Part shown: positions 1 to 57,212 of the stretch, in pieces
How positions within the stretch are numbered: position 1 is the stretch's first letter
Layout of the letters: every line of letters begins with the position of its first letter
Source: Candidatus Palauibacter poriticola
GTDB lineage: Bacteria; Gemmatimonadota; Gemmatimonadetes; Palauibacterales; Palauibacteraceae
Reading direction: 5' to 3'
DNA length: 64,000 nt
Assembly (NCBI GenBank): GCA_012270965.1
Contig: JAAXHJ010000044.1
Location: forward strand, 18,311 to 82,310
Position numbers and translations under genes: made by a program
The notes under the pieces: generated by a model
Databases searched by the model: none
Told to the model about the DNA's origin: nothing
Seen by the model: the letters and a program-made list of their open reading frames with translations, nothing else

Positions 1-1180
1 CCCTGTACTGGACCAGGTACGGCACGTCGAACTCATCGTATTCGACGAACCACGGCGTCTCCCAATCCGGCCAGATCAGATAGTTCTCTTCTGGCGGTTC
101 CAACCGTCCGATGAGCTGGCCGGACGTATCCAGCACCACCCACTCGGCCGAGTTCATCCCCGTACGCAGCAGTAACCAAGTGGTGCCGTCTTCTCCGGCC
201 CGGGCGCTGCGGACTGGCGGAAAAAACCGCGGCTCGCTGAAGGCCTCCTCCACGGCCCGACGATAACGGGCAAGGTCGACACCGGTACTGGCCCTTTGAA
301 CCCAGTCCTCCACTCGCCGGGATAGCCACTCATCGGTGACCCGTATGGGATCGTACGAATAATCACGAACCCAAGCGGTGTCCCCCTCAGCGTCGAACCG
401 GACGACTCGGTAGGTATGGGGGTCAGCCTCGTTCGCCACTTCCCGGTGAACAACCACGAGCCCCAACCCGTATCGCGAAGCCGTCGCCACTGAACGGTCG
501 TATACCGGCCGCACACCGAAATCCCGCCAGCCGGGTCGCCCTTGAATCTCGACTACGAAGGGTAAACCAACGACCGCCGACACGGTGTCGAGACGCGGGT
601 TTTGGTGATCGAGTCGGATCACGTGGTCGGGCCGGCGCGGGTCGGCGACGACCTCGTGGGCGTAACGCTCGGCACGGACGAGCAGGGACCCGTCGCCAAA
701 CATTCCGATCACATCCCAACGTCCGGGCGGCAGAGAGGGATGGCTCCAGATCGGTACCGATCTTGCGTAGCGATACTCCGCATCGAAGAACTGGACGCGC
801 CCGAGGTCCCCATCGGCGACCCAGAGCAACCCATCGTGAAGACCCATGGCGTCCAGCGACTCGAACTCCCCCGGCCCTCCTCCACGACCCCCTATGGAAC
901 CCAGAGGGGCACCGTCCACCGAAAGCACGCGAATGCGGTGTTCAAGCGGTTCCTCTACGAGGATTCTATCGCCATCGACGATCACGTCTCCAACGCTGGA
1001 GAAACCCCTCTCTGCGTCCAAAGCATCGCCAATCGTCGCGCCGCGCTCTAGAATCCACGTTGGCACTTGGCTCCAGACGGCGGCAGGCTCCGCCGCGCCG
1101 AAGGCGTAGAATCCCAGAATCCACCGTATGACGCCTGCCGGTGTCGTGCCTCTCCGCACCCACCTCTTCCTCTTCGTCAT
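1..1180 (-). CDS. Beta-propeller (NHL-like / six-bladed) family protein, paralog of 11217..12401. Start ATG at 1180; the 3' end runs off the window edge.
   Basis: Hand translation of the minus strand from 1180 gives MTKRKRWVRRGTTPAGVIRWILGFYAFGAAEPAAVWSQVPTWILERGATIGDALDAERGFSSVGDVIVDGDRILVEEPLEHRIRVLSVDGAPLGSIGGRGGGPGEFESLDAMGLHDGLLWVADGDLGRVQFFD... with no stop down to at least 600. It is not in the ORF track because it runs off the edge. It shares the GRRGGGPGEF / LWV.D...V.FFD motifs with the 11217..12401 protein. Confidence 0.6.
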   Translation of the reverse strand, partial: MTKRKRWVRRGTTPAGVIRWILGFYAFGAAEPAAVWSQVPTWILERGATIGDALDAERGFSSVGDVIVDGDRILVEEPLEHRIRVLSVDGAPLGSIGGRGGGPGEFESLDAMGLHDGLLWVADGDLGRVQFFDAEYRYARSVPIWSHPSLPPGRWDVIGMFGDGSLLVRAERYAHEVVADPRRPDHVIRLDHQNPRLDTVSAVVGLPFVVEIQGRPGWRDFGVRPVYDRSVATASRYGLGLVVVHREVANEADPHTYRVVRFDAEGDTAWVRDYSYDPIRVTDEWLSRRVEDWVQRASTGVDLARYRRAVEEAFSEPRFFPPVRSARAGEDGTTWLLLRTGMNSAEWVVLDTSGQLIGRLEPPEENYLIWPDWETPWFVEYDEFDVPYLVQYR

Positions 1181-1196: not shown

Positions 1197-1709
1197 TCAA
1201 ATGGTGATTCGCCGAAGGTTCGAACGGATCTCCGCAGCCCGAGAAGGCACGTAGTCTCTTTCAATGATAGCGCCGGTACAGGAGTGACGTCTGACCGCCG
1301 GAGGACTCGCGGCCGGTCGCTCTTCGCGATGCCGCCCGTCAAGAAACCCACTACTCGTCCGGGGGGCGAAACGCGTCTCCGGCGGAGTGACAACCGCATA
1401 GTGTCGCGAGACTCGGCCGTGTGGACCGATGGCCAGGGCGCAATCCCCCACGCCGTTCTCGTCCGTGCTGATGGTGCACTGGTCGTAGGTCGGCCGGTCG
1501 CACGACAGGCCGCCGTTGGTTTTTGCGATGCCGCAGTTCATCCAGGCGTCACGCTTGCGCCCTTCGGCGTTGGGATCGCCCTTCTCAACCTTACACACCG
1601 CGCATGGGGCGGAGGTCGCCTGAGCCGCCGCTGGCTCGGGAGCCGCAGCGTACAAGAGCGGGATCAGTACCACGAGGAACGGGAGCGGGGACAACAATCG
1701 GCGCAGCAT
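1197..1709 (-). CDS. Small secreted cysteine-rich protein (170 aa), paralog of 12398..12895.
   Basis: Signal peptide MLRRLLSPLPFLVVLIPLLYAAAPEPAAAQA, then 8 Cys. The C-terminal block RRHSCTGAIIERDYVPSRAAEIRSNLRRITI aligns with RRRCDGGIIARRYSASEAQAIFASTIRIRI of the 12398..12895 protein. The overlapping plus-strand ORF 1128..1739 is featureless. Confidence 0.5.
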   Translation of the reverse strand: MLRRLLSPLPFLVVLIPLLYAAAPEPAAAQATSAPCAVCKVEKGDPNAEGRKRDAWMNCGIAKTNGGLSCDRPTYDQCTISTDENGVGDCALAIGPHGRVSRHYAVVTPPETRFAPRTSSGFLDGRHREERPAASPPAVRRHSCTGAIIERDYVPSRAAEIRSNLRRITI

Positions 1710-1740: not shown

Positions 1741-2073
1741 CTAACAACCTGATGTGACCGGAATCCGCCAGCGCCACGAGTAGACGACGAGTTCGCTTTC
1801 CTCGAACGTCCGGAGGGCCACCATGATGGGGGCTTGCGACGCGGTGCCGACGAAACCGAACGGGGCGGCAACCAGGCGCTGCGACAGCACGCCACCACCG
1901 GCATCGTAGGTGACGAGGAGCCTCCCGTCGCTCGTGACATCCGCGATCACTTGGAGGAAGCCGGGATCGAGATGGAGGGCGCTCAGGGCGAGCCAGTTCG
2001 GAGGCAGTTCGCCCTCCCCCTCCCCGGTCGGTGGTGGGTCCGGCTGCATGGACGCGACCACCTCTCCGTTCAT
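1741..2073 (-). CDS. C-terminal third of a split propeller paralog. Its ATG overlaps the TGA of the upstream piece (ATGA).
   Basis: MNGEVVASMQPD...LHLDPGFLQV...ESELVVYSWRWR aligns with the contiguous C-terminus of the 12892..13983 protein (..LHLDPGIWN...TELVKYSWERV). Confidence 0.45.
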   Translation of the reverse strand: MNGEVVASMQPDPPPTGEGEGELPPNWLALSALHLDPGFLQVIADVTSDGRLLVTYDAGGGVLSQRLVAAPFGFVGTASQAPIMVALRTFEESELVVYSWRWRIPVTSGC

Positions 2074-2810
2074 CTCATCGCGATCCTCCAGACGGTGTGG
2101 GGCGGATCCCGGAACGCGACGAGCGCATCGGCCTCCGCGACCGCCAGGAAGATGCGGTCCGTCGATGGCCAGAGTGGCGCCACGAACGTCGAACGGGACA
2201 TCCCGCCGTTGCCGTCGGGCACGAAGTGAAGTTCCGTCCCGTCGGACGAGGAGGAGGGCGCGAGGAACCACCAGCCGCCCGGTCCCCGTACGGCCGAGTG
2301 AACCTCCGCCGACGCGGGAGATTCAACCCGCTTGGTGGGCGGAGCGGCCCACGCCATGTGTGACATCGTCCCGTCGGAGTGAACCATCTCGCCCGTGCTT
2401 CGGCCAAGGAAACGGCCACCGACGACCGGTCGGAAAGCGGGCAGCGTTCGGGGCTCCGCGTCCGACCCGTCGTAGAGAAGCACGGTCGGCGCGCGCGCCG
2501 ACCAAGCCAGCAGGCGATCCCCCTCCCTCGAGAGAACGGCACCGCCAACGGTCACGCCGGGCGGCACCCGGTGGGTGCGCATTTGCTCGAGTTCCAAGAC
2601 GGGCTTCTGGCGAGAAGCAGTCGAAGCGCCGGCGAGCCCGGAAGCCGGTGCCGAGAGGAGTGTCCAGAAGCCGGTGATGACCGTCCATGCGTGGACGTCT
2701 CGTCGAAAGCGGTACCAAGCCAACATGGTTTTCGTCTTCCCAAATCCTCGAACTCGGGGGGAACCGGCCAGCGTGTGAAGAAACCTCGATGGGTCGGTTT
2801 GCGGAGACAA
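2070..2810 (-). CDS. N-terminal two-thirds of a split propeller paralog (signal-peptide-like MLAWYRF...ITGFWTLLSAPASGLAGA; alternative start about 2726).
   Basis: VLELEQMRTHRVPPGVTVGGAVLSREGDRLLAWS aligns with SIELTEQSSVTIPDGRLLRGAVLSPSGELIVAWF of the 12892..13983 protein. It ends ...TVWRIAMR*, where the intact paralog continues in frame (RVWRIGGVTDQ...). Confidence 0.5.
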   Translation of the reverse strand: MSPQTDPSRFLHTLAGSPRVRGFGKTKTMLAWYRFRRDVHAWTVITGFWTLLSAPASGLAGASTASRQKPVLELEQMRTHRVPPGVTVGGAVLSREGDRLLAWSARAPTVLLYDGSDAEPRTLPAFRPVVGGRFLGRSTGEMVHSDGTMSHMAWAAPPTKRVESPASAEVHSAVRGPGGWWFLAPSSSSDGTELHFVPDGNGGMSRSTFVAPLWPSTDRIFLAVAEADALVAFRDPPHTVWRIAMR

Positions 2811-3672
2811 GGCGACGAAACGTATGAAGATGGCGCAAATCGACTACTTGTCGGTCGAATCGAATGATCGGACCAAGTCGGGCGGTGGCCCCCCCCCCCG
2901 AAGATTTTCCGAAAGCGAGGCCCAAGACGGGCTGGACATGCCGTACCGTAAACGCCGCGAGCAGCTGATCGGGAGGAATCCCCGGAAGCGCGCCGGGGGT
3001 GCAGCCAGGCCAAGTCCGCACCCTCCGGTTCACCGTTGCGCGACGGATTCCCGTGCGGGCGGTCACGCGCTTCCAGCCCAACCCGGAGCGGCGAAGCTCG
3101 TGCGCCCGGAGAATCGCGAGACCACCCAGCAGTCCGCCAAGGGTCGTCTCGCCTCGGGCGCAAGCCCGGAACTGCTGGAACAGCGTGACGGGAGCACAGC
3201 CGACGGCTTCCGCCAACTCTCTCACGTTGCGCACGGGTCGCGAGGCGGCCTGACGCACGGCATATACGAGAGCGCGGCGAAGAGCTCGGGGAATCTCGGC
3301 TCGTTCGAAAGCCGCCGCCAGGCACAACAGCCCCGACGTGACGCGCACCGCATCAAGCCGGGATGGCAGCCGGGTCCGCAGTGCCGGAAACCAGACAAGC
3401 GCCGATACGCGCACGGCAACCAACAGCTCGGCGACTTTGGGATGGCGGTCGGTCACGAGCACGACCGGCACCCACGGGCGCTCGCGTTCAAGTTTCCCCA
3501 GTAGATCGAGTCTCTCGCGGAGCCGATGTCTCCTGCAGGCAATGATCACGGCTTGGGCATCCCGGGTCCGCGCAACAAGCTCGCCCTCGGAGTCCGCCAC
3601 GTGCACAGCCCGGCCGGCTGCCCTGCCGATCTCCCGAATCTCCCAGGGCGTATCCGCAAGAACCAAAATCAT
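2323..3672 (-). CDS. Transcriptional regulator with a receiver-like N-terminal domain (no phospho-acceptor Asp) and an AraC-type HTH. As given, the ORF reads through a G11 tract and into the propeller gene. The true 3' end is probably near 2844.
   Basis: MILVLADTPWEIREIGRAAGRAVHVADSEGELVARTRDAQAVIIACRR...VPVVLVTD has a receiver fold. ...VRELAEAVGCAPVTLFQQFRACARGETTLGGLLGGLAILRAHELRRSGLGWKRVTARTGIRRATVNRRVRTW is AraC-type. Downstream of about residue 225 the product is low-complexity and overlaps 2070..2810 in another frame. Confidence 0.5.
   Translation of the reverse strand: MILVLADTPWEIREIGRAAGRAVHVADSEGELVARTRDAQAVIIACRRHRLRERLDLLGKLERERPWVPVVLVTDRHPKVAELLVAVRVSALVWFPALRTRLPSRLDAVRVTSGLLCLAAAFERAEIPRALRRALVYAVRQAASRPVRNVRELAEAVGCAPVTLFQQFRACARGETTLGGLLGGLAILRAHELRRSGLGWKRVTARTGIRRATVNRRVRTWPGCTPGALPGIPPDQLLAAFTVRHVQPVLGLAFGKSSGGGATARLGPIIRFDRQVVDLRHLHTFRRLVSANRPIEVSSHAGRFPPSSRIWEDENHVGLVPLSTRRPRMDGHHRLLDTPLGTGFRARRRFDCFSPEARLGTRANAHPPGAARRDRWRCRSLEGGGSPAGLVGARADRASLRRVGRGAPNAARFPTGRRWPFPWPKHGRDGSLRRDDVTHGVGRSAHQAG
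2889..2899. repeat. Homopolymeric tract C11 (G11 on the minus strand).
   Basis: Read directly from the sequence: ggcggtggccccccccccccgaag. Confidence 0.85.
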
Positions 3673-3833: not shown

Positions 3834-6305
3834 CTACTCGCCGTAGGGGACCCAGATGTTCTTGATCTGGGAGGCGCGGCGCAGGAACTCGCGCCCCTCG
3901 CCTCCGGGGCCGAACCAATTCCGGCCTCGATCCGCGTGCGCCCAGGTGCGCTTGAGGTTCGAGGCGGAACGCCGTTCCACATCGGCGGCACCCCCCTCCG
4001 ACCCGAAGTACCACATCCCGTCGACCGCGTCGTGCTCGGCGAGGATCGGCCGAAGTTCGTCCTCCAGGCCGGTCAGGATGTTGATGACGCCGGGAGGAAC
4101 ATCCGACGTCTCAAGCACGGGATAGGAATCCGTGGCCAACAGCGGCCACCGCTCCGAGGCCACGGCGACGACGGAGTTCCCGAGCGCGACGGGCGGGATC
4201 ACGCTGGAGATGAACCCCAGCAGTGCGGGCTCGACCGGACACACGACCGCCATCGTACCGAGCGGTTCGGGCATGGCGAGCGTCACGTTGCGGAAGGGCG
4301 TACGGTGGACGGCCCCGTCCCATTTGTCCGCCCAGGCCGCATAGGTGAACAGCCGGCGCACGGACGCCTCCACCTCGCACGCCGCGGCCTCGACGCCACA
4401 GCCCGTCAGAGTGCGCAGCCGCTCCTCGAACGACGTCCGCCGCGCCGAGAGGTTCTCCGCCACGTAGTAGAGGATCTGCGCCCGCAGGTGCGCCGTCGTA
4501 CCGTCCCACCCGCTGGCGAGCGCCGCCTCCACCGCGTTGCGGACATCCTTGCGGTTTCCGCGCGCCACTTCTCCCGCCGGGCACCCCGCATGGTCGCGGA
4601 CCGCAAGACTGTACCCGCCGTCCGGCCGCGCCTGCCGCCCCCCGATGTAGAGCTTCGCCGTGCGGTCGACCGGGGGCGGCGACCCGCGAGCCGGCGCTTC
4701 GCCGCCCGGCGCCGCAGTGCCCGCCTCCGCAGGATCCGCCTCCGCAATGTCCGCCTCCGCAATGTCCGCCTCCGCAGCGAGCGCCGAACCCGCCGCACGG
4801 CCCGCCGCGCGCCCCTCCGCGTCGACCGCCCGGCGCGGGCGGACGTACTCCCACAGGCCCTCCCGGCCGCCCTCGCGGCCGAATCCGCTCTCGCGGTAGC
4901 CGCCGAACCCGGACGCGGCGTCGAACACGTTCGTGCAGTTGATCCAGACCGTCCCGGCCTTGATCTGAGAGGCGATGTCGAGGGCGAGGTTCACGTTCTC
5001 CGTCCAGACGCTCGCCGCGAGGCCGTAGCGCGTGTTGTTCGCGAGCGCGACAGCCTCCGCCGGCGTGCGGAAGGTCATCTGAACCACGACCGGACCGAAG
5101 ATCTCGACCTGGGCGATCCGCGCGGCCGGCGACACGTCCGTGCAAAGGGTCGGCGGGTAGAACCACCCGTCCCGGGGCACGCTCCAGGACGGTTGCCAGA
5201 CCGCGGCGCCCTCCTCGCGTCCCTCTGCGACGAGCGACTCGATCTTCTTCAACTGGACCGGCGCGATGATCGCGCCGATGTCGACGCCCTTGTCGAGCGG
5301 GGCCCCCATGCGGAGCGTCTCCATGCGGGCGCGCAGGCGGTCGGCGAGCGCGTCGGCGATCCCCTCGTGGGCGAGGATCCGCGATCCGGCGCAGCACACC
5401 TGTCCCTGGTTGAACCAGATCGCGTCGACCACGCCCTCGACCACGCTGTCGAGGTCCGCGTCGTCGAACACCACGAAGGGCGACTTCCCGCCGAGTTCCA
5501 GCGAGATCTTCTTGCCCGTCCCCACCGTCGCCTCGCGAATGAGGCGTCCGACCTCCGTCGAGCCCGTGAAGGCGATCTTGTCGACATCCGGATGATCGAC
5601 GATCGCGGCACCCGTGCGGCTATCGCCGGTCACGATGTTCACGACGCCCGGCGGGAGATCGATGTCGCGGCAGAGTTCCGCGAACCGGAGCGCCGTCAGC
5701 GAGGTGAACTCGGCGGGCTTGAGGACGACGGTGTTCCCGGTCGCGAGGGCGGGCGCGATCTTCCAAGCGAGCATGAGCAGCGGGAAGTTCCAGGGGATGA
5801 TCTGGCCCGCGACGCCGAGCGGCTCGCAGTCCGCGAGTTCGCCGTCCATGAGCTGAGCCCAGCCCGCGTGGTGATAGAAGTGCCTCGCGGCGAGCGGAAT
5901 GTCGATATCGCGCGATTCGCGGATGGGCTTGCCGTTGTCGAGCGTCTCGAGCGTCGCGAAGAGCCGGGAGTGCTTCTGCAGGTGACGGGCGATCGCGTAC
6001 AGGTGGCGCGCCCGCCCGTGTCCCCCGAGATCCCGCCAGGTCGCCTGGGCCGCCCGCGCCGCCGCCACCGCGCGGTCCACATCGCCGCCCCCCCCCTGCG
6101 CAATCTCGCCCAGTTGCTCTTCGGTGCTCGGGTCGAAAGTCGCGAAGAACCCGCCGTCCGCCGGTTCGCACCAAGCGCCGCCGATGTAGTGCCCGAAGCG
6201 GGGACCCCGTTCCCCGATCCACGCGCGCGCCTCATCGGCGGCCTCCGGGGCGGGACCGTACTCCATCGTCTCGAACAGTTCCGCGATCTTCGGCATCTGT
6301 TTCAA
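3834..6305 (-). CDS. Aldehyde dehydrogenase family protein with two tandem ALDH-like domains joined by an AEADI-repeat linker.
   Basis: The N-terminal domain has ELGGKSP, IWFNQGQVCCAGSRIL and PWNFPL motifs. The second half (KLYIGG...VAENL...MAMPEPLGTMAVVCP...) is a second ALDH-like fold. The DNA repeat gcctccgcaatgtccgcctccgcaatgtccgcctccgcagc lies at about 4730-4790. Confidence 0.8.
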   Translation of the reverse strand: MKQMPKIAELFETMEYGPAPEAADEARAWIGERGPRFGHYIGGAWCEPADGGFFATFDPSTEEQLGEIAQGGGGDVDRAVAAARAAQATWRDLGGHGRARHLYAIARHLQKHSRLFATLETLDNGKPIRESRDIDIPLAARHFYHHAGWAQLMDGELADCEPLGVAGQIIPWNFPLLMLAWKIAPALATGNTVVLKPAEFTSLTALRFAELCRDIDLPPGVVNIVTGDSRTGAAIVDHPDVDKIAFTGSTEVGRLIREATVGTGKKISLELGGKSPFVVFDDADLDSVVEGVVDAIWFNQGQVCCAGSRILAHEGIADALADRLRARMETLRMGAPLDKGVDIGAIIAPVQLKKIESLVAEGREEGAAVWQPSWSVPRDGWFYPPTLCTDVSPAARIAQVEIFGPVVVQMTFRTPAEAVALANNTRYGLAASVWTENVNLALDIASQIKAGTVWINCTNVFDAASGFGGYRESGFGREGGREGLWEYVRPRRAVDAEGRAAGRAAGSALAAEADIAEADIAEADPAEAGTAAPGGEAPARGSPPPVDRTAKLYIGGRQARPDGGYSLAVRDHAGCPAGEVARGNRKDVRNAVEAALASGWDGTTAHLRAQILYYVAENLSARRTSFEERLRTLTGCGVEAAACEVEASVRRLFTYAAWADKWDGAVHRTPFRNVTLAMPEPLGTMAVVCPVEPALLGFISSVIPPVALGNSVVAVASERWPLLATDSYPVLETSDVPPGVINILTGLEDELRPILAEHDAVDGMWYFGSEGGAADVERRSASNLKRTWAHADRGRNWFGPGGEGREFLRRASQIKNIWVPYGE

Positions 6306-10940: not shown

Positions 10941-11216
10941 GGGCGGCCTGGTCGTGGTTCGAAGGCTGTGGGAGGCGGTGGGGCCGAGCGGCAGGATCGA
11001 CGGACGGCGCGGGAGCGTTGCCGGCCGCTACCGACCGTCGCTGATGGTGGAGCCGTGGGGTGGGTGCTGCTGCCGTAAGGCGGCGGCGTGACAGACCACC
11101 TGCCGCTTCCGGAGCGATGTCGGTTAGACAGATCGCAACCGGCGACCCGGCCGGAAACCGTGGCGCGCCCCAGCGTCGCGTCGGCCCGGCAAGGCAGCCG
11201 TCGGTTCCGCGACCCA

Positions 11217-12401
11217 TCACTTCAGAATCTCATACTTGACGACATACGAAATGTCCATCTCATCGGTCTCTACGATCCAGCACTCCGTCTCCGTAGCGGA
11301 TACAACGCGCGACGCTGCCGGAAGCCTGACTCTTCCAATCGTTGCCCCACTCCGATCAAGGACGAGCCACTCGGCTTCTCCGCTTCCATCGTCGGCCTGG
11401 CCCAACCACGTCGTCCCATCGCCTCCCGCCAACAGTCGTGTCACTGGCGGAAAGTACCGGCGTGTCTCAAAGAATTCTCTCACAGCGCCCGCGTGGGCCG
11501 CGCGATCGACGACCGAGTTCGACGTGAGCATGTTCTGTATTCGGTCGTCGAAAAAATCCTCGGGCACGCTCCGCGGCCGATATGCTACACTTCGATCGAA
11601 AACTGTGTCTCCAGCTGCTGAAAGGCGTGTAACCTGAAACTCCGGCGTCCCGGCGCCATTCCAACTACGTCGATTCACCACAACCGCCGCGGCTCCATCC
11701 GGTGCCAAGTCGATCAAATCCCCCTGAGGAAGGGGCGTCGACAAAAACATGATCGAGTTCGACTGCAATCCCGCCGTTATCTCGGCAATTTCTCCTTCCC
11801 GCGACAGCACCGCCAACGTGTCACGCACCGCACCGCTTGCATCCGAAACCGGAAGCACGACGAACGGTGTGAGCCCGCGAGCAATCGCGTGACTCCCGGT
11901 CTCGGGATACCCCACGATTCCTCCATCCGCCAAAACCGCCCACGGACCCCAGCTGAACACATCGTACGCCGCTTCAAACGGTTGCGCATACGGTACCGTC
12001 TTCACACCGCCGTTGTCGACATCGAAGAAAGTGACACGCCTTGCATTCCAGTCACTCACCCACAGTTCGGAACTGTACCATCCCATGAGCAGAGGCGCAA
12101 TGAATTCTCCCGGTCCGCCCCCGCGACGCCCAAGAGTCTGGGCGAATCGGCCACGGTGATCGAAAACCACAACGGTCCCGTCCTGTGGTTGCAATATATA
12201 TACGTGATTCTGATCCACCAGAACCGTGCCCACTCTCGTGAGCGCCGACGATGGGTCGTCTACGCTTCCGATCGTCACGCCGCGACGGAGCGACCATTCG
12301 GACACCATGGCTGGCGGGGCGGTGTCCGTCCCACACCCACTCCAGGTCAACCACGCAGCCAGCACGCCCGTCGGCCACCTCATGACCCGGCCGATACTCA
12401 T
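11217..12401 (-). CDS. Propeller-family lipoprotein (NHL-like / six-bladed).
   Basis: Lipoprotein signal ...AAWLTWSGCGTD. GRRGGGPGEF and SSELWVSDWNARRVTFFD motifs. The C-terminus is ...ISYVVKYEILK. The start ATG overlaps the upstream stop (ATGA at 12398-12401). Confidence 0.65.
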   Translation of the reverse strand: MSIGRVMRWPTGVLAAWLTWSGCGTDTAPPAMVSEWSLRRGVTIGSVDDPSSALTRVGTVLVDQNHVYILQPQDGTVVVFDHRGRFAQTLGRRGGGPGEFIAPLLMGWYSSELWVSDWNARRVTFFDVDNGGVKTVPYAQPFEAAYDVFSWGPWAVLADGGIVGYPETGSHAIARGLTPFVVLPVSDASGAVRDTLAVLSREGEIAEITAGLQSNSIMFLSTPLPQGDLIDLAPDGAAAVVVNRRSWNGAGTPEFQVTRLSAAGDTVFDRSVAYRPRSVPEDFFDDRIQNMLTSNSVVDRAAHAGAVREFFETRRYFPPVTRLLAGGDGTTWLGQADDGSGEAEWLVLDRSGATIGRVRLPAASRVVSATETECWIVETDEMDISYVVKYEILK

Positions 12402-12895
12402 ATTCGAATGCGTATCGTGCTGGCAAAAATCGCTTGCGCCTCGCTCGCCGAGTACCGGCGAGCGATGATTCCTCCGTCGCAGCGCCGCCGCATGATCGAG
12501 GCAGGAACCAGATCATTACGGATCATCTCCGCGTACCGCGCGTCCAGGTCCGATCCGTAGACCGCAGGCACGGTACCTACGGAACTCGCGTGTGAATAGC
12601 CGAGGGGCACTGATCCGTCCGTCCCGTCGGGACGAAGTCGCCCATCTAACATTACGACGCTGCCGAGACAGAATTGACCGCCGACCTCGCAACGTTCGCA
12701 CTCCGGCGTCGTACAGTAGTCATCCAGACCCCAGAGTGCGTTGTGGACGCAGTAATTACACTCTACCGCGCTTCCATCGGCCGGTCCGGGGCCGGACGTA
12801 CACCAAAAGCACTGCGCCACTGCGGGTGCTGCGACCCCCGCCCCGGCCAGAATAGCAAGGCCAAGACTCAGCATGACGAATCGTGAGCGTGTCAT
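12398..12895 (-). CDS. Small secreted cysteine-rich protein (165 aa, 9 Cys).
   Basis: Signal peptide MTRSRFVMLSLGLAILAGAGVAAPAVAQ, then CFWCTSGPGPADGSAVECNYCVHN...C.. It is a paralog of 1197..1709. It has ATGA overlaps with both flanking propeller genes. Confidence 0.55.
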   Translation of the reverse strand: MTRSRFVMLSLGLAILAGAGVAAPAVAQCFWCTSGPGPADGSAVECNYCVHNALWGLDDYCTTPECERCEVGGQFCLGSVVMLDGRLRPDGTDGSVPLGYSHASSVGTVPAVYGSDLDARYAEMIRNDLVPASIMRRRCDGGIIARRYSASEAQAIFASTIRIRI

Positions 12896-13983
12896 CGTTC
12901 TTCTCCTGCGCTTCCGGTTGAGTCTGGGACGCGTTCCCAGGAATACTTTACAAGCTCCGTATTATTCAACGTCCGGATGGCCAGTACGACGGGACCGATG
13001 GTAGCACTATCGACGAGCCCAAAGGCGGCGTCGACCGTCGTATATCGTGCGAATCGGCCGTTTGAGTTGAACCAAAGCAACAGCCGCTGGTCCGTCCCCC
13101 GGTGCGCCATGGTTTGAGCATAGCCCGGCCCGATGGCGACGACGGAGGTCGTATTCCAAATCCCTGGATCGAGATGCAAGGACCTGGCGATGTTGTTGTC
13201 GAACCAGTCGCCCGTGACCTGTTGGAACTTCACGGGCGGCTGATCCGTGACGCCGCCAATGCGCCATACGCGAAAGGGATTGAAACTCTGCCACACGAGC
13301 GCGTCGTGTCCGTTAGCGGAGAGTGCGATGCTCCCTGCGTAGGTCGAGTCGGGAATCCAGGCGTCTTGGCCGTCGGGCATTTGGACGCGTGGCGGCGAAA
13401 GGTCCGAGGACGCAAGAAACCAGCCGGACGTGGTCCGCGCTGCAATATCGGCTTTCGCTGCGCCGGGCAGACTCTGTCGGGCAACTACGTTTCCCGCCGT
13501 GTCCGCCACAACCAGGTCAGCTCCGCCGCCATCGATGATTTCGAGCGTGGTCGCATCCAAGAACGCGACGCCGATCGCTTGCCCGACATGCTGGGTAAGT
13601 ACGTCCTTGCCAATGGATCCACGGTAAACGCGGATCCCCGGAGTACTATTGAACCAAGCAACGATCAACTCTCCCGAAGGTGACAAGACCGCGCCCCGTA
13701 GCAGTCTCCCGTCTGGTATCGTGACGCTCGACTGCTCGGTCAACTCGATTGAAGGGCGTGACCACCGAGCATCACTTGACTGCCCGAGTTCCGTCGCAGG
13801 TGACACGGTTCCGTGTGGGGTCGGTTCGGCGGATGAGCGGCCGGGATGGGCGAGGAGTAGCAGGGCAACTGAAAGGATCTTAACGATCTGGCAGCATCGC
13901 CGCCGTCCGCGGACGGGTGGAGCTGTCCCGCCTTCACGGACGATTGATTTCCGCGGTTGAACCCGGCCCGTGTTGTTCCCCAC
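12892..13983 (-). CDS. Secreted propeller-family protein (intact paralog). Proposed GTG start at 13983; the start is uncertain.
   Basis: Signal-peptide-like RGRRRCCQIVKILSVALLLLAHPGRSSAEP. The body is homologous to 2070..2810 plus 1741..2073. The 5' 590 nt of the track ORF (to 14574) is Arg/Ser-rich junk that overlaps the IS remnant. Confidence 0.55.
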   Translation of the reverse strand: MGNNTGRVQPRKSIVREGGTAPPVRGRRRCCQIVKILSVALLLLAHPGRSSAEPTPHGTVSPATELGQSSDARWSRPSIELTEQSSVTIPDGRLLRGAVLSPSGELIVAWFNSTPGIRVYRGSIGKDVLTQHVGQAIGVAFLDATTLEIIDGGGADLVVADTAGNVVARQSLPGAAKADIAARTTSGWFLASSDLSPPRVQMPDGQDAWIPDSTYAGSIALSANGHDALVWQSFNPFRVWRIGGVTDQPPVKFQQVTGDWFDNNIARSLHLDPGIWNTTSVVAIGPGYAQTMAHRGTDQRLLLWFNSNGRFARYTTVDAAFGLVDSATIGPVVLAIRTLNNTELVKYSWERVPDSTGSAGEER

Positions 13984-14032
13984 AACCCCTCTCGCGTGGC
14001 CGGGAGAGGTGGGTGCGCACCGCCGGCCCGCC

Positions 14033-14611
14033 TCAGGCCGCATGGAGGCTCTCGTAGTCGGCCGGCGACTCGTAGCCGAGGGCGGAGTGAAGCCGACGCG
14101 TGTTGTGGAAGCCCTCGATGAAGCCGAAGGCCTCGTGCCGGGCCTCCGACGCCGTGCGTAACGAGCGCCTCCGGACGAGTTCGCACTCGGGCGTCGTGAA
14201 GAAGCTCTCGCACAGCGCGTTGCGGTGCGCGTCGCCGACCGAGCCCATCGACCGGGCGATGCCCGCGCCGCGGCAGCGCTCCCCGTCAAGGCGCCGCAGC
14301 TCCGTCGTCGGGCCGTCGCTTCGGAACCCCTCGTCCACGTCCGCCTGCCCGAGCCAGTTCCGGATCGTCGGCTCCGAGAGCTCGAACTCCCGGATCGGTG
14401 AGCCCGGCCCACAACCGGACCGCGCAAGCTCGACCAGCCGTTCCCGGTACTCCGGCAGGTACCGCCCCGCCCTCGCTGCCACGACGCGCCTCCGTGGTTG
14501 GCCCCATGGGAAGGTGCCGGTGAAACCGGGGCAACTCCAGGGCGGAGCATGGCGGGTTTGAACGACACCCTCACTCTCGTGTGCGATTGGCCTCATGGGA
14601 TGCGCACTCAA
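14033..14611 (-). mobile_element. IS3-family transposase remnant: OrfA HTH fused to the extreme C-terminus of OrfB, with the DDE core deleted.
   Basis: RYLPEYRERLVELARSGCGPGSPIREFELSEPTIRNWLGQADVDEG matches the IS3 OrfA HTH. DAHRNALCESFFTTPECELVRRR...EARHEAFGFIEGFHNTRRLHSALGYESPADYE matches the OrfB C-terminal tail. There is an AT-richer patch at about 14605-14650. Confidence 0.7.
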
Positions 14612-14666
14612 GCCAAAAAATCATCAAGAAATAAGGCGTGCAGACGATACCGACCGCATCAGTGTA

Positions 14667-14677
14667 CCCCCCCCCCC
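14667..14677. repeat. Homopolymeric tract C11 (G11 on the minus strand).
   Basis: Read directly from the sequence: agtgtacccccccccccaatcc. Confidence 0.85.
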
Positions 14678-14750
14678 AATCCGGAGTCAACCCTCTTGGT
14701 CCTCGAACCTACGGCGCGGTCAGCGTGCTTCCCTCAAACGCCGCCAAGGG

Positions 14751-15620
14751 CTACGAGAACCGGCGGATCGACTCGGCGACGAGGCGCTGGAAGCCGGGCT
14801 GGGCGAGCTTCGTCGTCTCCAGCACTTCCTCGTGATTCAGCGGTTCGTCAAGCACGCCCGCCGCGTAGTTGGTGAGGCATGAGACGGCGACGCAGCGGAT
14901 GCCGAGGGCGCGCGCCGCGATGACCTCCGGCACCGTCGACATGCCGACGGCATCGGCACCGAGCCGCCGCAGCATGCGGATCTCGGCCGGGGTCTCGAAG
15001 GCGGGGCCGTGCATCGCCGCGTAGACGCCCTCGTGCAGCGTCTGGCCGAGTTCGGTCGCCACACCGAGCACGATCGCCCGCAACTCCCGGTCGTAGGCGA
15101 ACGTCAGGTCGGGGAAGCGATGCTCCGCCCCCACCACGGGACCGATGAGCGGGCTCGTTCCGGTCAGGTTCAGGTGGTCCGAGATCAGCATCAACTCCCC
15201 AGGACGCCAGCCCTCGCGGATCGCCCCGGCCGCGTTCGAGAGGAAGAGGGCCCGGACCCCCAGCACCGCCGCGACCCGCACGTAGAAGGCGACGCGGTCC
15301 GGCGGGCCGCCCTCGTAGAGGTGGACGCGTCCGCTCAGCCCCAGCACCGGCCGGCCACCGAGCATGCCGATGAGGGCGTGGCCAGCGTGCCCGACGACGG
15401 TGGGGCGCGGCCAACCGGGCAGCTCCTCGTACGGCACGCGCAGCGCATCCTCGATCTCCGCACCGAGGCCGCCCAAGCCCGAACCCATGGTGATCGCCGC
15501 GATCGGCGTGTCATCGCCGAGCCGGGTCTCGATGCGCTCCCGCAGCACGCACGCCGCACCCTCGACCTCCGCTCCGATGGCCCTTGGAGCGGGGCGGCCG
15601 GCAACGCTCGGAACCCTCAC
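14751..15620 (-). CDS. Purine nucleoside phosphorylase (PNP/MTAP family). GTG start at 15620 overlaps the nupC stop (GTGA).
   Basis: GSGLGGL, HEGVYAAMHGPAFETPAEIRMLRRLGADAVGMSTVPEVIAA. The long N-terminal extension in the track ORF (to 16805) is spurious and overlaps nupC. Confidence 0.8.
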   Translation of the reverse strand: MRVPSVAGRPAPRAIGAEVEGAACVLRERIETRLGDDTPIAAITMGSGLGGLGAEIEDALRVPYEELPGWPRPTVVGHAGHALIGMLGGRPVLGLSGRVHLYEGGPPDRVAFYVRVAAVLGVRALFLSNAAGAIREGWRPGELMLISDHLNLTGTSPLIGPVVGAEHRFPDLTFAYDRELRAIVLGVATELGQTLHEGVYAAMHGPAFETPAEIRMLRRLGADAVGMSTVPEVIAARALGIRCVAVSCLTNYAAGVLDEPLNHEEVLETTKLAQPGFQRLVAESIRRFS

Positions 15621-21249: not shown

Positions 21250-21332
21250 GCGAAAGTGGCGGAATTGGCAGACGCGCCAGCCTTAGGAGCTGGTGGCCCT
21301 TGGCCGTGGGGGTTCGAGTCCCCCCTTTCGCA
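21250..21332 (+). tRNA. tRNA-Leu, anticodon UAG.
   Basis: Acceptor stem GCGAAAG/CTTTCGC. D arm GCG-GAATTGGCAGA-CGC. Anticodon stem CCAGC/GCTGG with loop CTTAGGA. Long variable arm GGCC..GGCC. T arm GGGGG-TTCGAGT-CCCCC. Discriminator A. Confidence 0.85.
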
Positions 21333-25370: not shown

Positions 25371-25382
25371 CCGTACCCGCCC

Positions 25383-25424
25383 GTGGCGAACCCCCGCTGC
25401 GTTCGAGCGGCCCCGCATCGCGCC
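25383..25424. repeat. REP-like extragenic element, copy 1 (core CCCCGCTGCGTTCGAGCGGCGCCGCATC).
   Basis: Near-identical copies lie at about 49871..49910 and 55959..55999. A rearranged copy lies at about 45075..45116. All are in 3' intergenic spacers. Confidence 0.7.
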
Positions 25425-25460
25425 TACACGCTGCGCTCCGAGTCGCTCCTCGGGCCGCTA

Positions 25461-27149
25461 TTAGTTGATGTCGTACTTGCGGATCTTTCGGTAGATCGTG
25501 CGCTCGCCGATGCCGAGAGCCTCCGCGGCTCGGCGCCGGTTGCCGCCGGCGTGGCGGAGCACCGCGATGATCGCCGCGCGCTCGATCTCCTCCATCGTCA
25601 TTCCGGGCCGGATCGCGATCACAGCCGCGTCCGCAGGCTCGGGGCCGTCCGCCTGACCCGGGTCGTGCTCAGGCTCGGGGCCGTCCGCAGGCTCGGGACC
25701 GTGCTCAGGCTCCGGGCCGTCCCCCGCCACTGAGACGACTTCGGTCCCGGTGGCGTCGGTCGTCTCGACCGCGTCGGTGATGTCGATCTCGATCGCGTCC
25801 TCGATGTCCTCCCCCGCTCCGCTCCGGGGGGGAGCCGGGGGGAGTTGGCGAGCGCCCGACCTGTAGGCCTCGAACTCCCGCTTGAGGTCATCGATGTCCA
25901 CCTTGAGGTCGACGAGGGTGCGGAAGACGAAGGCGAGTTGCGGTGAACTCGGGATGGACCCTGCGCCCACGCCGGCCGCAGGCGCGATGCGCGCCGGAGA
26001 CGGCACGAGGCTCATCCTCCCCGACCCGATCTCGGGCGGGATGTCCTCGGGGCGGATGACGGAGCCGGGCGCGAGCACAACCATGGACTCGATCAGGTTC
26101 CGGAGTTCCCGGATGTTCCCCGGCCAGTCGTAGTCGAGGAGAATCTGGAGCGCTTCCGGAGCGAGTCCGCGAAACTCCCGATCGTGCTGGCGGCTGAACT
26201 CCGAGATGAAGCGGCGGATGAGGACGGGAATATCGCGGCGGCGCTCGCGGAGCGGGGGGACGTGGACGTTGAGGACGTTGAGACGGTAGTACAGGTCGCG
26301 GCGGAACTCCCCGGTCTCGACCGCCTGCCTGAGGTCGCGGTTCGTGGCGGCGACGACGCGCACGCTGACGCGGATCTCGTGGTCTCCGCCCACCCTCATG
26401 AAGCGGCGGCTCTCGAGAATCCTCAACAGCCGCGTCTGGGTGGGGAGCGGCATCTCCGCGATCTCGTCGAGGAGGAGCGTGCCGCCGTCGGCGAGTTCGA
26501 ACATCCCCCGCCGCAGCGACGTCGCTCCGGTGAAGGCGCCCTTCTCGTGCCCGAACAGTTCGGATTCGAGCAGCGACTCGGGGAGGGCGGCGCAGTTCAC
26601 CGCAATGAAGGCCCTGGCGCGCCTCGGGGACAGCCTGTGGAAGGCGCGCGCCACGAGTTCCTTTCCGGTTCCGCTCTCGCCGGTGAGGAGGACGGTGCTC
26701 ATCACGGGGGCGATCATGTGCACCCGCTCGAGGATCTCGCGCACGGCCTCGGTGCGCCCGATGATCCCCGTCTGTCGCTGCAGGTCGTAGCGGTCGAGGT
26801 GCGCCTGCAGGACGACCCGCACTTCGTCGGGATCGACGGGAAGGGGGAGCGCCTCATCGAGATCGAAGGACCGCGCCAACTGCCGGCGCGCGTCCGGGTG
26901 GGTTTCCTCCGTGAGCCCGAGCACGGGCGGGCGCGGAATCTCCGCCTCGAACAGTCCCCGCATCGCGTTGGCGCGCGCTTCGCCGGGAGGGCCCGTGAGG
27001 ACGAGGGCGACCTCGGCCGCCCCGCCCAGCCGTCCCTCGAGTTCGCGCACGGACTCCACGAACTCGACTTCATGGCCGTCGGCCTGCACGGCTTGGCGGA
27101 CGGCGATCGCGGCCTCGACCGCGCGCCCGTCGACGAAGACGCGTGCCAT
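25461..27149 (-). CDS. Sigma-54-dependent transcriptional activator (NtrC family) with an atypical receiver domain and a Pro/Glu-rich repeat linker.
   Basis: GESGTGKE and GAFTGA motifs. C-terminal Fis-type HTH. The receiver lacks the phospho-acceptor Asp. Linker GPEPEHGPEPADGPEPEHDPGQADGPEPAD is encoded by tandem DNA repeats at about 25619-25740. Confidence 0.8.
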   Translation of the reverse strand: MARVFVDGRAVEAAIAVRQAVQADGHEVEFVESVRELEGRLGGAAEVALVLTGPPGEARANAMRGLFEAEIPRPPVLGLTEETHPDARRQLARSFDLDEALPLPVDPDEVRVVLQAHLDRYDLQRQTGIIGRTEAVREILERVHMIAPVMSTVLLTGESGTGKELVARAFHRLSPRRARAFIAVNCAALPESLLESELFGHEKGAFTGATSLRRGMFELADGGTLLLDEIAEMPLPTQTRLLRILESRRFMRVGGDHEIRVSVRVVAATNRDLRQAVETGEFRRDLYYRLNVLNVHVPPLRERRRDIPVLIRRFISEFSRQHDREFRGLAPEALQILLDYDWPGNIRELRNLIESMVVLAPGSVIRPEDIPPEIGSGRMSLVPSPARIAPAAGVGAGSIPSSPQLAFVFRTLVDLKVDIDDLKREFEAYRSGARQLPPAPPRSGAGEDIEDAIEIDITDAVETTDATGTEVVSVAGDGPEPEHGPEPADGPEPEHDPGQADGPEPADAAVIAIRPGMTMEEIERAAIIAVLRHAGGNRRRAAEALGIGERTIYRKIRKYDIN

Positions 27150-27186
27150 CAGACGCAGCCGCCCGGCATCAGACGCAGCCGCCCGC
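27147..27186. repeat. Perfect 20-bp tandem duplication (catcagacgcagccgcccgg, twice) spanning the mogA stop and the regulator start.
   Basis: Read directly. On the minus strand it gives TGATG twice, with a 6-codon mini-ORF (MPGGCV) between the two genes. Confidence 0.85.
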
Positions 27187-28760
27187 AGACGCGTGGCCGG
27201 TATCGCCGCGCAGCAGATCGACGGCATGGTCGACCACGGACTCGAGAGCGGCGAGCCCGTCGGAGACGCCGCCCGGACTCCCGGGCAGGTTGATGACGAG
27301 CGTCTCGCCGCGGACTCCCGCCAGCCCGCGGCTGAGCGCCGCGTACGGCGTGGACTCGGCGCCGGTGCGGCGCAGCATCTCGGCGATCCCCGGCGCGCGG
27401 CGCTCGAGGATGGTGCGCGTCGCCTCGGGCGTCACGTCGCGCGCCGCAAGCCCGGTTCCGCCCGTCGTGAGAACGACGTCCACCCCCTGCACGTCGCACC
27501 AGTGCAGGAGGCGGGCGGCGATCTCGGCGCTCTCGTCAGGGATGACATCGGCGCCGGCCAGCGAGTAGGCGCGCCCCCGAATCCACTTCTTGATGAGATC
27601 CCCGGAACCGTCTTCCCGCTCTCCGGCGGACACGCGGTCGGAGATGGTCACGACGGCGATCCGCGGGGCGATGCGGTGCAGCGAGCCGCGCGGATAGAAG
27701 GGCGGACGCACGACCTCGGCCGCGATCGCCTTCCCCCGGATCATGATCTCGACCGCGGCGCCGAACCCGGCGGCGACGGGCAGGTACGCGGTCGCGATCC
27801 CGTGCCCCATGGAGGGGCTCACGGTGCCGCTGCGCACCTCGCCAACGGCCTCCCCCTCGAAGCGGACCTCGTAACCCGGCCGCGGGAAGCCCCGATCGAG
27901 CAGTCTCAGGAAGCGCAGCCTGCGGGTGAGGCCGGCGGCGCGCTGCGCGGCGAGGGCCTCCGAGCCCACAAAGTCGCCCTTGCCGTGCTTCACGAGCCAC
28001 CCGAGTCCGGCCTCGAGCGCAGTCGTCTCATCGTCCACGTCGTTTCCGTAGAGCGCGTAGCCCATCTCGAGCCTAAGCGAGTCGCGGGCCCCCAGACCCG
28101 CGGGGACGGCGCCGGCCTCGACGAGCACCCGCCACGCCGGCGCCGCATACGCCTTCGGCATGTAGAGTTCGAACCCGATCTCCCCCGTGTAACCGGTCCG
28201 GCTGATCACGCACGGCGCGCCCGCGACCTCCCCGCGCACGAAGTGGTAGTAGTCGATCTCCGCCAGCGGCTGGTCGGTCAGCGGCGCGAGCGTCCTCTCC
28301 GCCAACGGACCCTGGAGGGCGAGGAGGGCGATCTCGTCGCTCTCGTCCGTCATTTCCACGTCGAAGCCCCGCGCGAGCCTGCCGAGGTGCGCCCAGTCCT
28401 TGGCCATGTTGGCCGCGTTCACGACGAGCCGGTAATCCGCCTCGCCCATGCAGTAGACGATGAGGTCGTCGATGACGCCGCCGGTCTCGTGGCACATCGC
28501 GCTGTACTGGGCGTCCCCATCCCGCAGGCGAGAGGGGTCGTTCGTCGTCGCGTAGGCCACGAACGCCTGCGCGTCCTCACCGCGGACGCGGAACTCTCCC
28601 ATGTGGGAGACGTCGAACAGGCCCGCCTTCTCGCGCACGGCACGGTGTTCGGCCCTGATGCCGGTCGGATACTGAACGGGCATCGCGTAGCCGGCGAAGG
28701 GAACGATCTTGCCGCCCAACCGGACGTGTTCCTCGAATAGCGGGGTCGCTTTCAGGTCTT

Positions 28761-49748: not shown

Positions 49749-49926
49749 CCCGCACCTCCCACCGTAACAGGACCGATTCCTGTCCGAGGATCGTGAAGCG
49801 GATCAACCGGCCGTCAACACGGTCATCCGTGGGGCGTGTCGGAGGACGCCGAAAAGCGCTGGCGGCCCGCGGTGAAGCCCCGCTGCGTTCGAGCGGCGCC
49901 GCATCCCGCCCGAACGCCGGGAGACG

Positions 49927-55941: not shown

Positions 55942-56032
55942 TGGCGACCCAACGGCCCGTGGCGAAGCCCCGCCGCGTTCGGGCGGCGCACGCCCATGCA
56001 ACGACTCGTCGAGCTAAGGGCCACCAACGTTC

Positions 56033-56986: not shown

Positions 56987-57212
56987 CGGAGCCCGCTCAG
57001 CTCCAGCGGGGATCATGACGAATCCCGCCGTCCCGAAGCACCGATCCAGCCTCAGCGCTTCACGGAGATGACAACCACGAGTTGATCTCGGCGTCGGCGA
57101 GGAATTCATCGTGGGTGCGCGCGACATCCGGGTTCGGTTCGCCTTCGCGCGGCGGCGCCCCACAGTTCGGGGATGCGAACGACCCTGAACGCCGGCCTCT
57201 GCGGGGGGGGGC

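Follow-up and report, generated by a model that had tools for sequence, protein, structure and literature searches.

A G11 tract between promoter-like hexamers upstream of a predicted exported-protein module of Candidatus Palauibacter as a probable slippage-variable spacer

The G11 tract and its promoter-like surroundings

The stretch of DNA analysed here, 64 kb long and called the window throughout, has a base composition of 69% G+C and encodes proteins that group with Candidatus Palauibacter (Gemmatimonadota), a group that, according to PMC10469786, occurs in sponges, corals and marine sediments. It carries two copies of a three-gene module, A-B-C, and our subject is a homopolymer upstream of the second copy, tract 2: a run of eleven C on the + strand at 14667-14677, which is G11 on the minus strand. 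As the original prediction had it, this run lies between the stop codon of a purine nucleoside phosphorylase (PNP) gene and a remnant of an IS3-family insertion sequence (IS); it is located 74 nucleotides (nt) downstream of the PNP stop (TAG 14753-14751, minus strand) and 56 nt from the left tip of the remnant (14610). The features of the tract and its immediate surroundings are as follows.

14685..14690, minus strand: -35-like hexamer TTGACT, from the promoter scan, with GGG in front of it, a feature of all related loci
14667..14677, minus strand: G11 tract 2, making up 11 of the 18 spacer bases, with homologous tracts in relatives
14661..14666, minus strand: -10-like hexamer TACACT, from the promoter scan, abutting the tract directly

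Read on the minus strand, the sequence is GGGTTGACT CCGGATT G11 TACACT, i.e., a sigma-70-like promoter of the form TTGACT-18 nt-TACACT. The promoter scan returned one sigma-70-like site in the interval 13700-14900, the one straddling the tract, where shuffles expect 0.0, and the pattern TTGACN-N16-19-TANNNT has just 2 occurrences in the whole window, both strands included. By our own arithmetic from base composition, a given tract would be flanked by TTGACN and TANNNT at suitable distances with a probability of ~6e-6. Based on this layout and on the comparisons below, we propose that tract 2 is probably a slippage-variable spacer of the module promoter.

Two other roles were considered and set aside. 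On the minus strand, neither the vicinity of the tract nor the interval from the promoter to the first module gene, A2, contained a terminator-like site, and a terminator role of the tract was rejected on that ground. An Rfam search over the window gave no match at the tract, its sole hit being a tRNA at 21250-21332, and an RNA family or riboswitch at this position was likewise rejected.

Conservation of the element upstream of related modules

Alignment of the A-family proteins recovered nine loci from a genome collection, to which exact-protein look-ups added more; a search by protein in the JGI metagenomes found no further relatives, and a search of 5.8 billion proteins found only 27 relatives. 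Gene order is conserved as nupC-PNP-(A-B-C)-katG (opposite strand)-deoC-aldehyde dehydrogenase. In four other Candidatus Palauibacter loci, all of them IS-free, GGGTTGAC, 7-9 nt, a run of G8-G11 and TAnnnT follow one another directly 5' of the A gene with spacers of 16-19 nt, and a homopolymer of at least ~8 nt between recognisable -35 and -10 hexamers is in this way found in five loci including the window.

L008, after PNP: TTGCCA ... TACGAT, G11, spacer 18 nt
L011, after PNP: TTGACA ... TACGGT, G8, spacer 16 nt
L005, after a KatG fragment: TTGACG ... TAGGAT, G10, spacer 19 nt
L022, after ArgR: TTGACG ... TATCCT, G10, spacer 18 nt

The A proteins downstream of the tract-bearing loci are 53-67% identical. 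In an alignment of six sequences the invariant columns are GGGTTG.C, the spacer T just 5' of the run, the G run and TA...T, together with a TCG ~8 nt beyond TA...T, and the flanks are otherwise barely alignable. Upstream of the IS-free loci the neighbour is PNP, a KatG fragment or ArgR, three different contexts, and the promoter-tract element therefore travels with the module. Taken together with the conserved design and the diverged flanks, this shows that the element is part of the module, not of PNP, and that the -35 and -10 hexamers are under constraint.

These contexts also bear on the possibility that the tract has its role in RNA, within a nupC-PNP 3' untranslated region whose G-rich structure would affect termination or stability. 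The tract is on the same strand as PNP, 74 nt past its stop, with no intrinsic terminator predicted between the two, and the order of PNP and tract recurs in L008 and L011. In L005 and L022, however, the element is not downstream of PNP, and what follows PNP in L007, L010, L015, L016 and L030 is different sequence devoid of a tract, which, with no Rfam match, makes an action in RNA highly improbable.

Association of long G/C runs with the A-B-C family

The runs of at least 8 nt in the window are C11 at 14667-14677, C11 at 2889-2899 (tract 1, treated below), C9 at 6088-6096 and G9 at 57203-57211, with no others. The C9 run lies inside an aldehyde dehydrogenase gene, where it is part of the codons for the Gly run in QGGGGD, and the G9 run lies in a convergent intergenic region, one base past the stop of a D-3-phosphoglycerate-dehydrogenase-like gene; both are usable as internal controls for homopolymer read errors.

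It had been suggested that two 11-nt homopolymers in 64 kb are unlikely to be due to chance, and statistics confined to the window lend this little weight. From composition alone (69% G+C) our own arithmetic gives ~0.8 runs of at least 11 nt per 64 kb, so that two such runs are unremarkable on that basis. Dinucleotide shuffles of the window held a mean of 0.22 11-mers, with two reached in 7 of 100 shuffles, and for 9-mers the 8 observed compare with a shuffle mean of 2.25, 2 of 100 shuffles reaching 8. The excess of G/C runs inside the window, and with it the case for non-randomness, is only marginal.

The part of the suggestion that stood is the link to the gene family, which emerges from a census of 208 kb of non-redundant sequence (the window and 15 related loci). 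In this sample G/C runs of 5, 6, 7 and 8 nt number 356, 82, 25 and 7, a ~3.5-fold drop per base, and beyond 8 the distribution flattens to 3, 2 and 3 runs at lengths 9, 10 and 11. The five runs of 10-11 nt, without exception, and six of the eight of at least 9 nt are found upstream of A-family genes with G on the coding strand, tract 2 of the window being scored as upstream of A2 only once the IS is subtracted. As A-upstream DNA makes up ~2% of the sample, the binomial P for this clustering is of the order of 1e-9 (our own arithmetic). The outcome that would have refuted the original prediction, tracts that are common and free of positional bias, was not found within this sample, and the association of long G runs with the A-B-C family is not due to chance. 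It is this comparative evidence, and not the statistics within the window, that carries the case.

The same data address the view that the tract is a neutral product of slippage in non-coding, high-GC DNA, functionless and flanked by hexamers that arose by chance. The expected ~0.8 runs per 64 kb and the shuffles that reach two 11-mers agree with such a view, and coding regions of these genomes also hold G8-G9 runs. Nevertheless, position, strand and both hexamers are kept in five loci with downstream proteins no more than 53-67% identical and flanks otherwise unalignable, all the runs of 10-11 nt are upstream of the A family, and the placement of the hexamers around the tract has the low probability given above. 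The conserved loci therefore largely refute a neutral origin, which we consider very unlikely.

Variation of tract length

Among homologous tracts the length is G11 in L008, G10 in L005, L020, L021 and L022, G9 in L019 and G8 in L011, and between species the tract comprises 8, 10, 10, 11 and 11 G. A difference is also found at shorter range: an identical A protein, P0001, is preceded by G9 in ERR3887496 and by G10 in ERR3887492, ERR3887494 and the chromosome OY762926.1. Across 2.9 kb, two substitutions and the tract gap, which is the sole indel, are all that separates the G9 contig from OY762926.1 (99.9% identity), and tract length therefore differs between related samples with the same flanks (G9 in L019 versus G10 in L020, L021 and L005). 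The strain of the window itself is represented by four metagenome contigs from four ENA assemblies or samples, 100% identical to it over 6-21 kb, and at the level of consensus sequence tract 1 is G11 in both assemblies read. The length heterogeneity that the original prediction had named as a check was accordingly seen in a related lineage and, for either tract, was not seen in the window's own strain at this level.

The main rival of a variable spacer is a fixed one, in which the G run would be a required spacer of constant length, acting through its rigidity or as a factor binding site, and the differences between genomes would reflect slow drift compensated in the adjoining 7-9 nt. In line with this, the window, L008, L022 and L019 share a spacer length of 18 nt despite compositions of 7+11, 7+11, 8+10 and 9+9, which resembles compensation to a constant total, and G11 is found in every assembly of the window's strain. 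On the other hand, the near-clonal contigs differ by one G that is uncompensated (19 versus 18 nt), and the spacers of L011 and L005 are 16 and 19 nt, respectively. Furthermore, runs of 9-11 G are intrinsically slippage-prone, and keeping such a run with no use made of its variability would be costly. On balance we find a fixed structural element unlikely, albeit the alternative to be taken most seriously, and retain the slippage-variable spacer as the probable explanation.

Module copy 2 and its neighbours

The module downstream of tract 2 and the gene pair upstream of it consist of the following genes.

17035-15617, minus strand: nupC, from the gene map
14751..15548, minus strand: PNP, last gene of the nupC-PNP pair (PF01048, E = 8e-55)
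12892..13983, minus strand: A2, first gene of module copy 2, a predicted beta-propeller with a signal-peptide-like N-terminus
12398..12895, minus strand: B2, a small Cys-rich secreted protein of 165 amino acids (aa) with a signal peptide
11217..12401, minus strand: C2, a DUF5128-type six-bladed beta-propeller lipoprotein of 394 aa (PF17170, E = 3e-6) with a lipobox-like SGC

The B2 start overlaps the A2 stop, and the C2 start the B2 stop, each by ATGA, which suggests that A, B and C form one operon. Profile searches assigned A and B to no Pfam or NCBIfam family, and the PADLOC defence families gave no match for A, B, C or the regulator-like protein described below. The AlphaFold model of A2 has a predicted local distance difference test (pLDDT) value of 74.8, and its best Foldseek matches are six-bladed propellers of the NHL/Drp35 type with a template modelling (TM) score of ~0.5; as to the function of the module, the fold search of A yielded a generic six-bladed propeller alone. 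The predicted lipoboxes and signal peptide make export of the module proteins likely. The A-family consensus contains a lipobox (L..GC / ...AL..GC), and A2 has GR at that place (...AHPGR..., 13900-13940), the attachment Cys being missing.

The G+C content of the two module copies (11200-14000 and 1-1800) is ~59-64% as compared to 69% for the window, module 2 having ~60%, which suggests a horizontal origin or different constraints. A coding G8 run within the ARGGIL codons is conserved in C genes of other loci (L010 7935-7942, L011 7487-7494, L013 7524-7531 and L016 4817-4824) and is absent from C2 of the window. On chromosome OY762926.1, where L005 and L009 are ~12 kb apart, two or three module copies stand in tandem, flanked by duplicated katG and PNP fragments, which indicates rearrangement by duplication at this locus.

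An IS3-family remnant between the promoter and A2

The remnant separates tract 2 from module copy 2, in agreement with what had been predicted, as it occupies 14010-14610 between the tract and A2.

14010..14610, minus strand: internally deleted IS3-family element of 601 bp, with tips TGAGTGCGCA / TGGGTGCGCA
14033..14596, minus strand: open reading frame (ORF) of the remnant, in which an N-terminal piece is joined to the transposase C-terminus; gene calls of 149-187 aa with PF13683

An IS3-related DDE (rve) transposase is recognisable, with rve_3 and rve_2 (PF13683, PF13333) and NCBIfam transpos_IS3 covering only the last ~75 residues of the ORF; the transpos_IS3 match (E = 1e-18) extends over profile positions 294-369 of 369. 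Terminal inverted repeats of the 5'-TG...CA-3' kind are present, 9 of 10 positions being identical between TGAGTGCGCA and the reverse complement TGGGTGCGCA. The full length of ~1.2-1.5 kb, the two overlapping ORFs and the 3-4 bp target duplication of IS3 elements are lacking here (601 bp, one fused ORF), and no clean target duplication was found at the IS flanks (GCT / CCT). The element is an internally deleted, non-autonomous remnant.

A gap of 50 nt separates it from the -10 box, and one of 26 nt from the start codon of A2, a GTG at 13983 that follows GAGAGGGG. L005, L008, L011 and L022 do not have the element, and once the IS is subtracted the window aligns collinearly with L005 and L022 over the interval from the promoter through the region of the start codon. 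As no terminator-like site was found between the promoter and A2, it is possible that transcription reads through the remnant into A2-B2-C2.

The proximity of the IS raises the question of whether the tract is an IS3 target site or scar, a product of rearrangement, or an artefact of assembly or sequencing. The tract is 56 nt from the IS tip, and IS3-like sequence is found beside A genes in L006 and L028 and inside the module in L009. Promoter and tract are nonetheless IS-free in L005, L008, L011 and L022, which refutes the tract as a product of IS insertion, and an assembly artefact was rejected as the tract is internal to contigs in four assemblies from different assemblers and samples and is also found in chromosome-level assemblies. 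Of the alternatives weighed here, we hold this one to be the least probable.

IS3-like sequences occur by or in the module elsewhere (L006 1-80, L028 1-160, L009 7259-8379 and L005 525-1645), placed directly upstream of A in opposite orientation or between B and C, the contigs of L006 and L028 ending there. The module region looks like a hot spot of IS insertion.

Tract 1 in a regulator-like gene upstream of module copy 1

The second G11 run of the window lies upstream of the other module copy.

2889..2899, minus strand: G11 tract 1 (C11 on the + strand), inside the 3' end of the regulator-like ORF
2844..3672, minus strand: regulator-like gene, with weak AraC-type helix-turn-helix and receiver-like similarity, all below Pfam cut-offs
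1741..2726, minus strand: A1, first gene of module copy 1, a divergent paralogue with ~30-40% identity to family members
1197..1709, minus strand: B1, Cys-rich secreted protein of module copy 1
1..1180, minus strand: C1, beta-propeller protein of module copy 1, running past the edge of the window

The two tracts had been taken to occupy corresponding positions 5' of their modules. This did not hold, as tract 2 fills a promoter spacer and tract 1 is in the 3' end of the regulator-like ORF, within an insert of ~33 nt that is common to the window and L012 (G9 there). No promoter hexamers flank tract 1. Homology of the two contexts was rejected: their flanks are unrelated, tract 1 is inside a gene insert and the hexamers are absent there.

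In this ORF a change of one base in the tract alters the reading frame. The G9 of L012 is in frame to the family-conserved end SDGVSTLDQK and gives a protein of 274 aa. With G10 or G13 the ORF of the window would yield 275/276 aa ending in ...DLVRSFDSTDK at a stop codon at 2846-2844, and the observed G11 is out of frame, giving a 449-aa read-through over the A1 start. Homologues of the regulator lie directly 5' of A in L007, L009, L010, L012, L015, L024 and L030, and a truncated copy in L016-18; in L029 an ORF of 200 aa upstream of A, and in L023 an ORF fragment of 47 aa at the start of the locus, look like the same gene. Modules with the spacer tract have no adjacent regulator gene, which suggests that the module may be controlled in two alternative ways, one through a tract at initiation and the other through a tract in the frame of a regulator. 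Under such an arrangement tract 2 would act on transcription initiation and tract 1 on the reading frame of the regulator.

A1 is split by a frameshift at ~2070-2080, just after the conserved VWRI motif, and the split gene calls (218 + 110 aa) are seen again in independent assemblies. L024 and L025 have a coding G8 run (WRIGGGSEW) in the A gene at the position of the A1 split, and this position may be an old slippage site.

Other repeats in the window

Three copies of a ~53-nt GC-rich repeat with the palindrome CCCCGCTGCGTTCGAGCGG are found at 25379-25431, 49865-49917 and 55955-56007, 70-85% identical to the reference copy, which may be an element of the repetitive extragenic palindromic (REP) kind. 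An 18-nt tandem repeat of 5 overlapping copies (25628-25753) lies within a minus-strand open frame (25461-27431) and probably encodes a 6-residue protein repeat.

Proposed mechanism

We propose that the promoter serves a unit of Palauibacter-specific genes, encoding the putative beta-propeller (lipo)protein A, the Cys-rich secreted protein B and the DUF5128 beta-propeller lipoprotein C. The hexamers are fixed and the G run fills most of the space between them, so that gain or loss of G by slipped-strand mispairing in replication would alter the distance from -35 to -10. Altered spacing would in turn set transcription of the module higher, lower or off in a manner both heritable and reversible. 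In the genome of the window, transcription from the promoter would have to cross the IS remnant to arrive at A2-B2-C2. Control of expression by tract length, and frequent switching, are inferred from the architecture and the comparisons described.

A broader proposal, which we advance tentatively, as conceivable rather than probable, is that sponge-associated Palauibacter runs its envelope-protein module as a contingency locus with two poly-G switches, namely a promoter spacer where the regulator is absent and a frame-setting tract where the regulator is kept.

Several observations weigh against a slippage-variable promoter spacer. The G9/G10 difference comes from short-read assemblies, in which homopolymer miscalls are possible, and in the window's own strain tract 2 is G11 in 4 of 4 assemblies at the level of consensus. 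An 18-nt spacer occurs, in at least one assembly, in 4 of the 5 distinct promoters, which could mean a fixed, selected length. That the hexamers constitute a working promoter is inferred under sigma-70-like rules assumed to apply to Gemmatimonadota. In addition, in the genome of the window the inserted IS may have broken the link between promoter and module, and as no terminator follows nupC-PNP, read-through from that pair could also transcribe the module. Finally, as A2 has no family lipobox Cys, copy 2 may be decaying or under relaxed selection.

The design itself extends beyond the group. A scan of a metagenome collection with the pattern GGGTTGAC-N6-14-G8-TA, which is biased in that a good -35 box and TA are required, matched at least 120 contigs of unrelated organisms, human gut included. 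Among the matches listed, TANNNT follows the run in 88 of 120 and is often TATAAT; the 120 resolve into 86 distinct flank families, and in 8 of the 14 that have two or more members the number of G differs, some recurrent promoters differing only in that number (8/9/10; 9 versus 15). Most sampled ORFs downstream of the listed matches have signal-peptide-like starts, and no relatives of the window proteins were found on these contigs (L031-L150). The arrangement GGGTTGAC-Gn-TANNNT is thus common and typically placed before exported proteins, as judged from predicted starts, which fits a slippage-variable spacer. This side result suggests that uncultured bacteria use switches of this kind far more widely than one would gather from the literature on pathogens.

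If the switch works as proposed, the A-B-C module would be a variable interface of abundant uncultured sponge and sediment bacteria, and the locus lets population heterogeneity be read directly from metagenomic reads. Should both switches prove true, this would be, within the searches made, the first slippage-based phase variation for the phylum and for a sponge symbiont, and the module would be a candidate determinant of host or phage interaction.

Comparison with known systems

Homopolymers that are prone to slippage and lie in promoter spacers are well known from textbooks as a device of pathogens adapted to a host, and the slipped-strand promoter switch is a known kind; full-text searches for literature linking Gemmatimonadota or Palauibacter to phase variation gave no relevant paper, and in the searches made it is unreported for the phylum. 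In Neisseria meningitidis porA, opc and fetA a poly-G or poly-C tract lies between or beside the -35 and -10 boxes. As in those genes, where a strain-variable G/C run of ~8-14 nt in the spacer of an outer-surface gene sets the spacing of the hexamers and expression, the run upstream of module copy 2 stands between the two boxes. Unlike in Neisseria, the host is a member of the Gemmatimonadota with 69% GC, associated with sponges or sediment, the unit is a putative three-gene operon of beta-propeller lipoproteins plus a Cys-rich protein, and an IS stands between promoter and genes.

Bordetella pertussis fim2 and fim3 are similar in that a C/G run upstream of the -10 box tunes transcription of a surface structure via spacing. 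There, however, the tract spaces the site of an activator (BvgA) from the -10 box, whereas here a good -35 faces the -10, and the tract-bearing modules do not have the adjacent regulator gene found by other copies. The vlp genes of Mycoplasma hyorhinis offer paralogous lipoprotein genes with a homopolymer in each promoter spacer and independent on/off switching, differing from the present case in that the tracts are poly-A in an AT-rich genome and the units are single genes, as opposed to G, a GC-rich genome and an operon.

Tract 1 has its counterpart in the intragenic poly-G contingency tracts of Campylobacter jejuni and Haemophilus influenzae, where likewise a run inside an ORF determines by its length the C-terminal reading frame. 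It differs in lying near the 3' end of a regulator-like gene, as opposed to the 5' part of a gene for a surface protein, and only the last ~15 residues and the read-through over the start of the next gene are affected. Coding homopolymeric tracts in general are the subject of PMC2831843.

The ibpA promoter of Buchnera aphidicola, in which a single-base deletion occurs in a homopolymeric tract of the spacer, is described in PMC1847839. It resembles our locus in that the activity of a symbiont promoter depends on the length of a spacer homopolymer in which natural length mutations recur, and it differs in being a heat-shock promoter with a poly-A tract and a deleterious or conditional allele, as opposed to the surface-protein contingency switch that we consider for Palauibacter.

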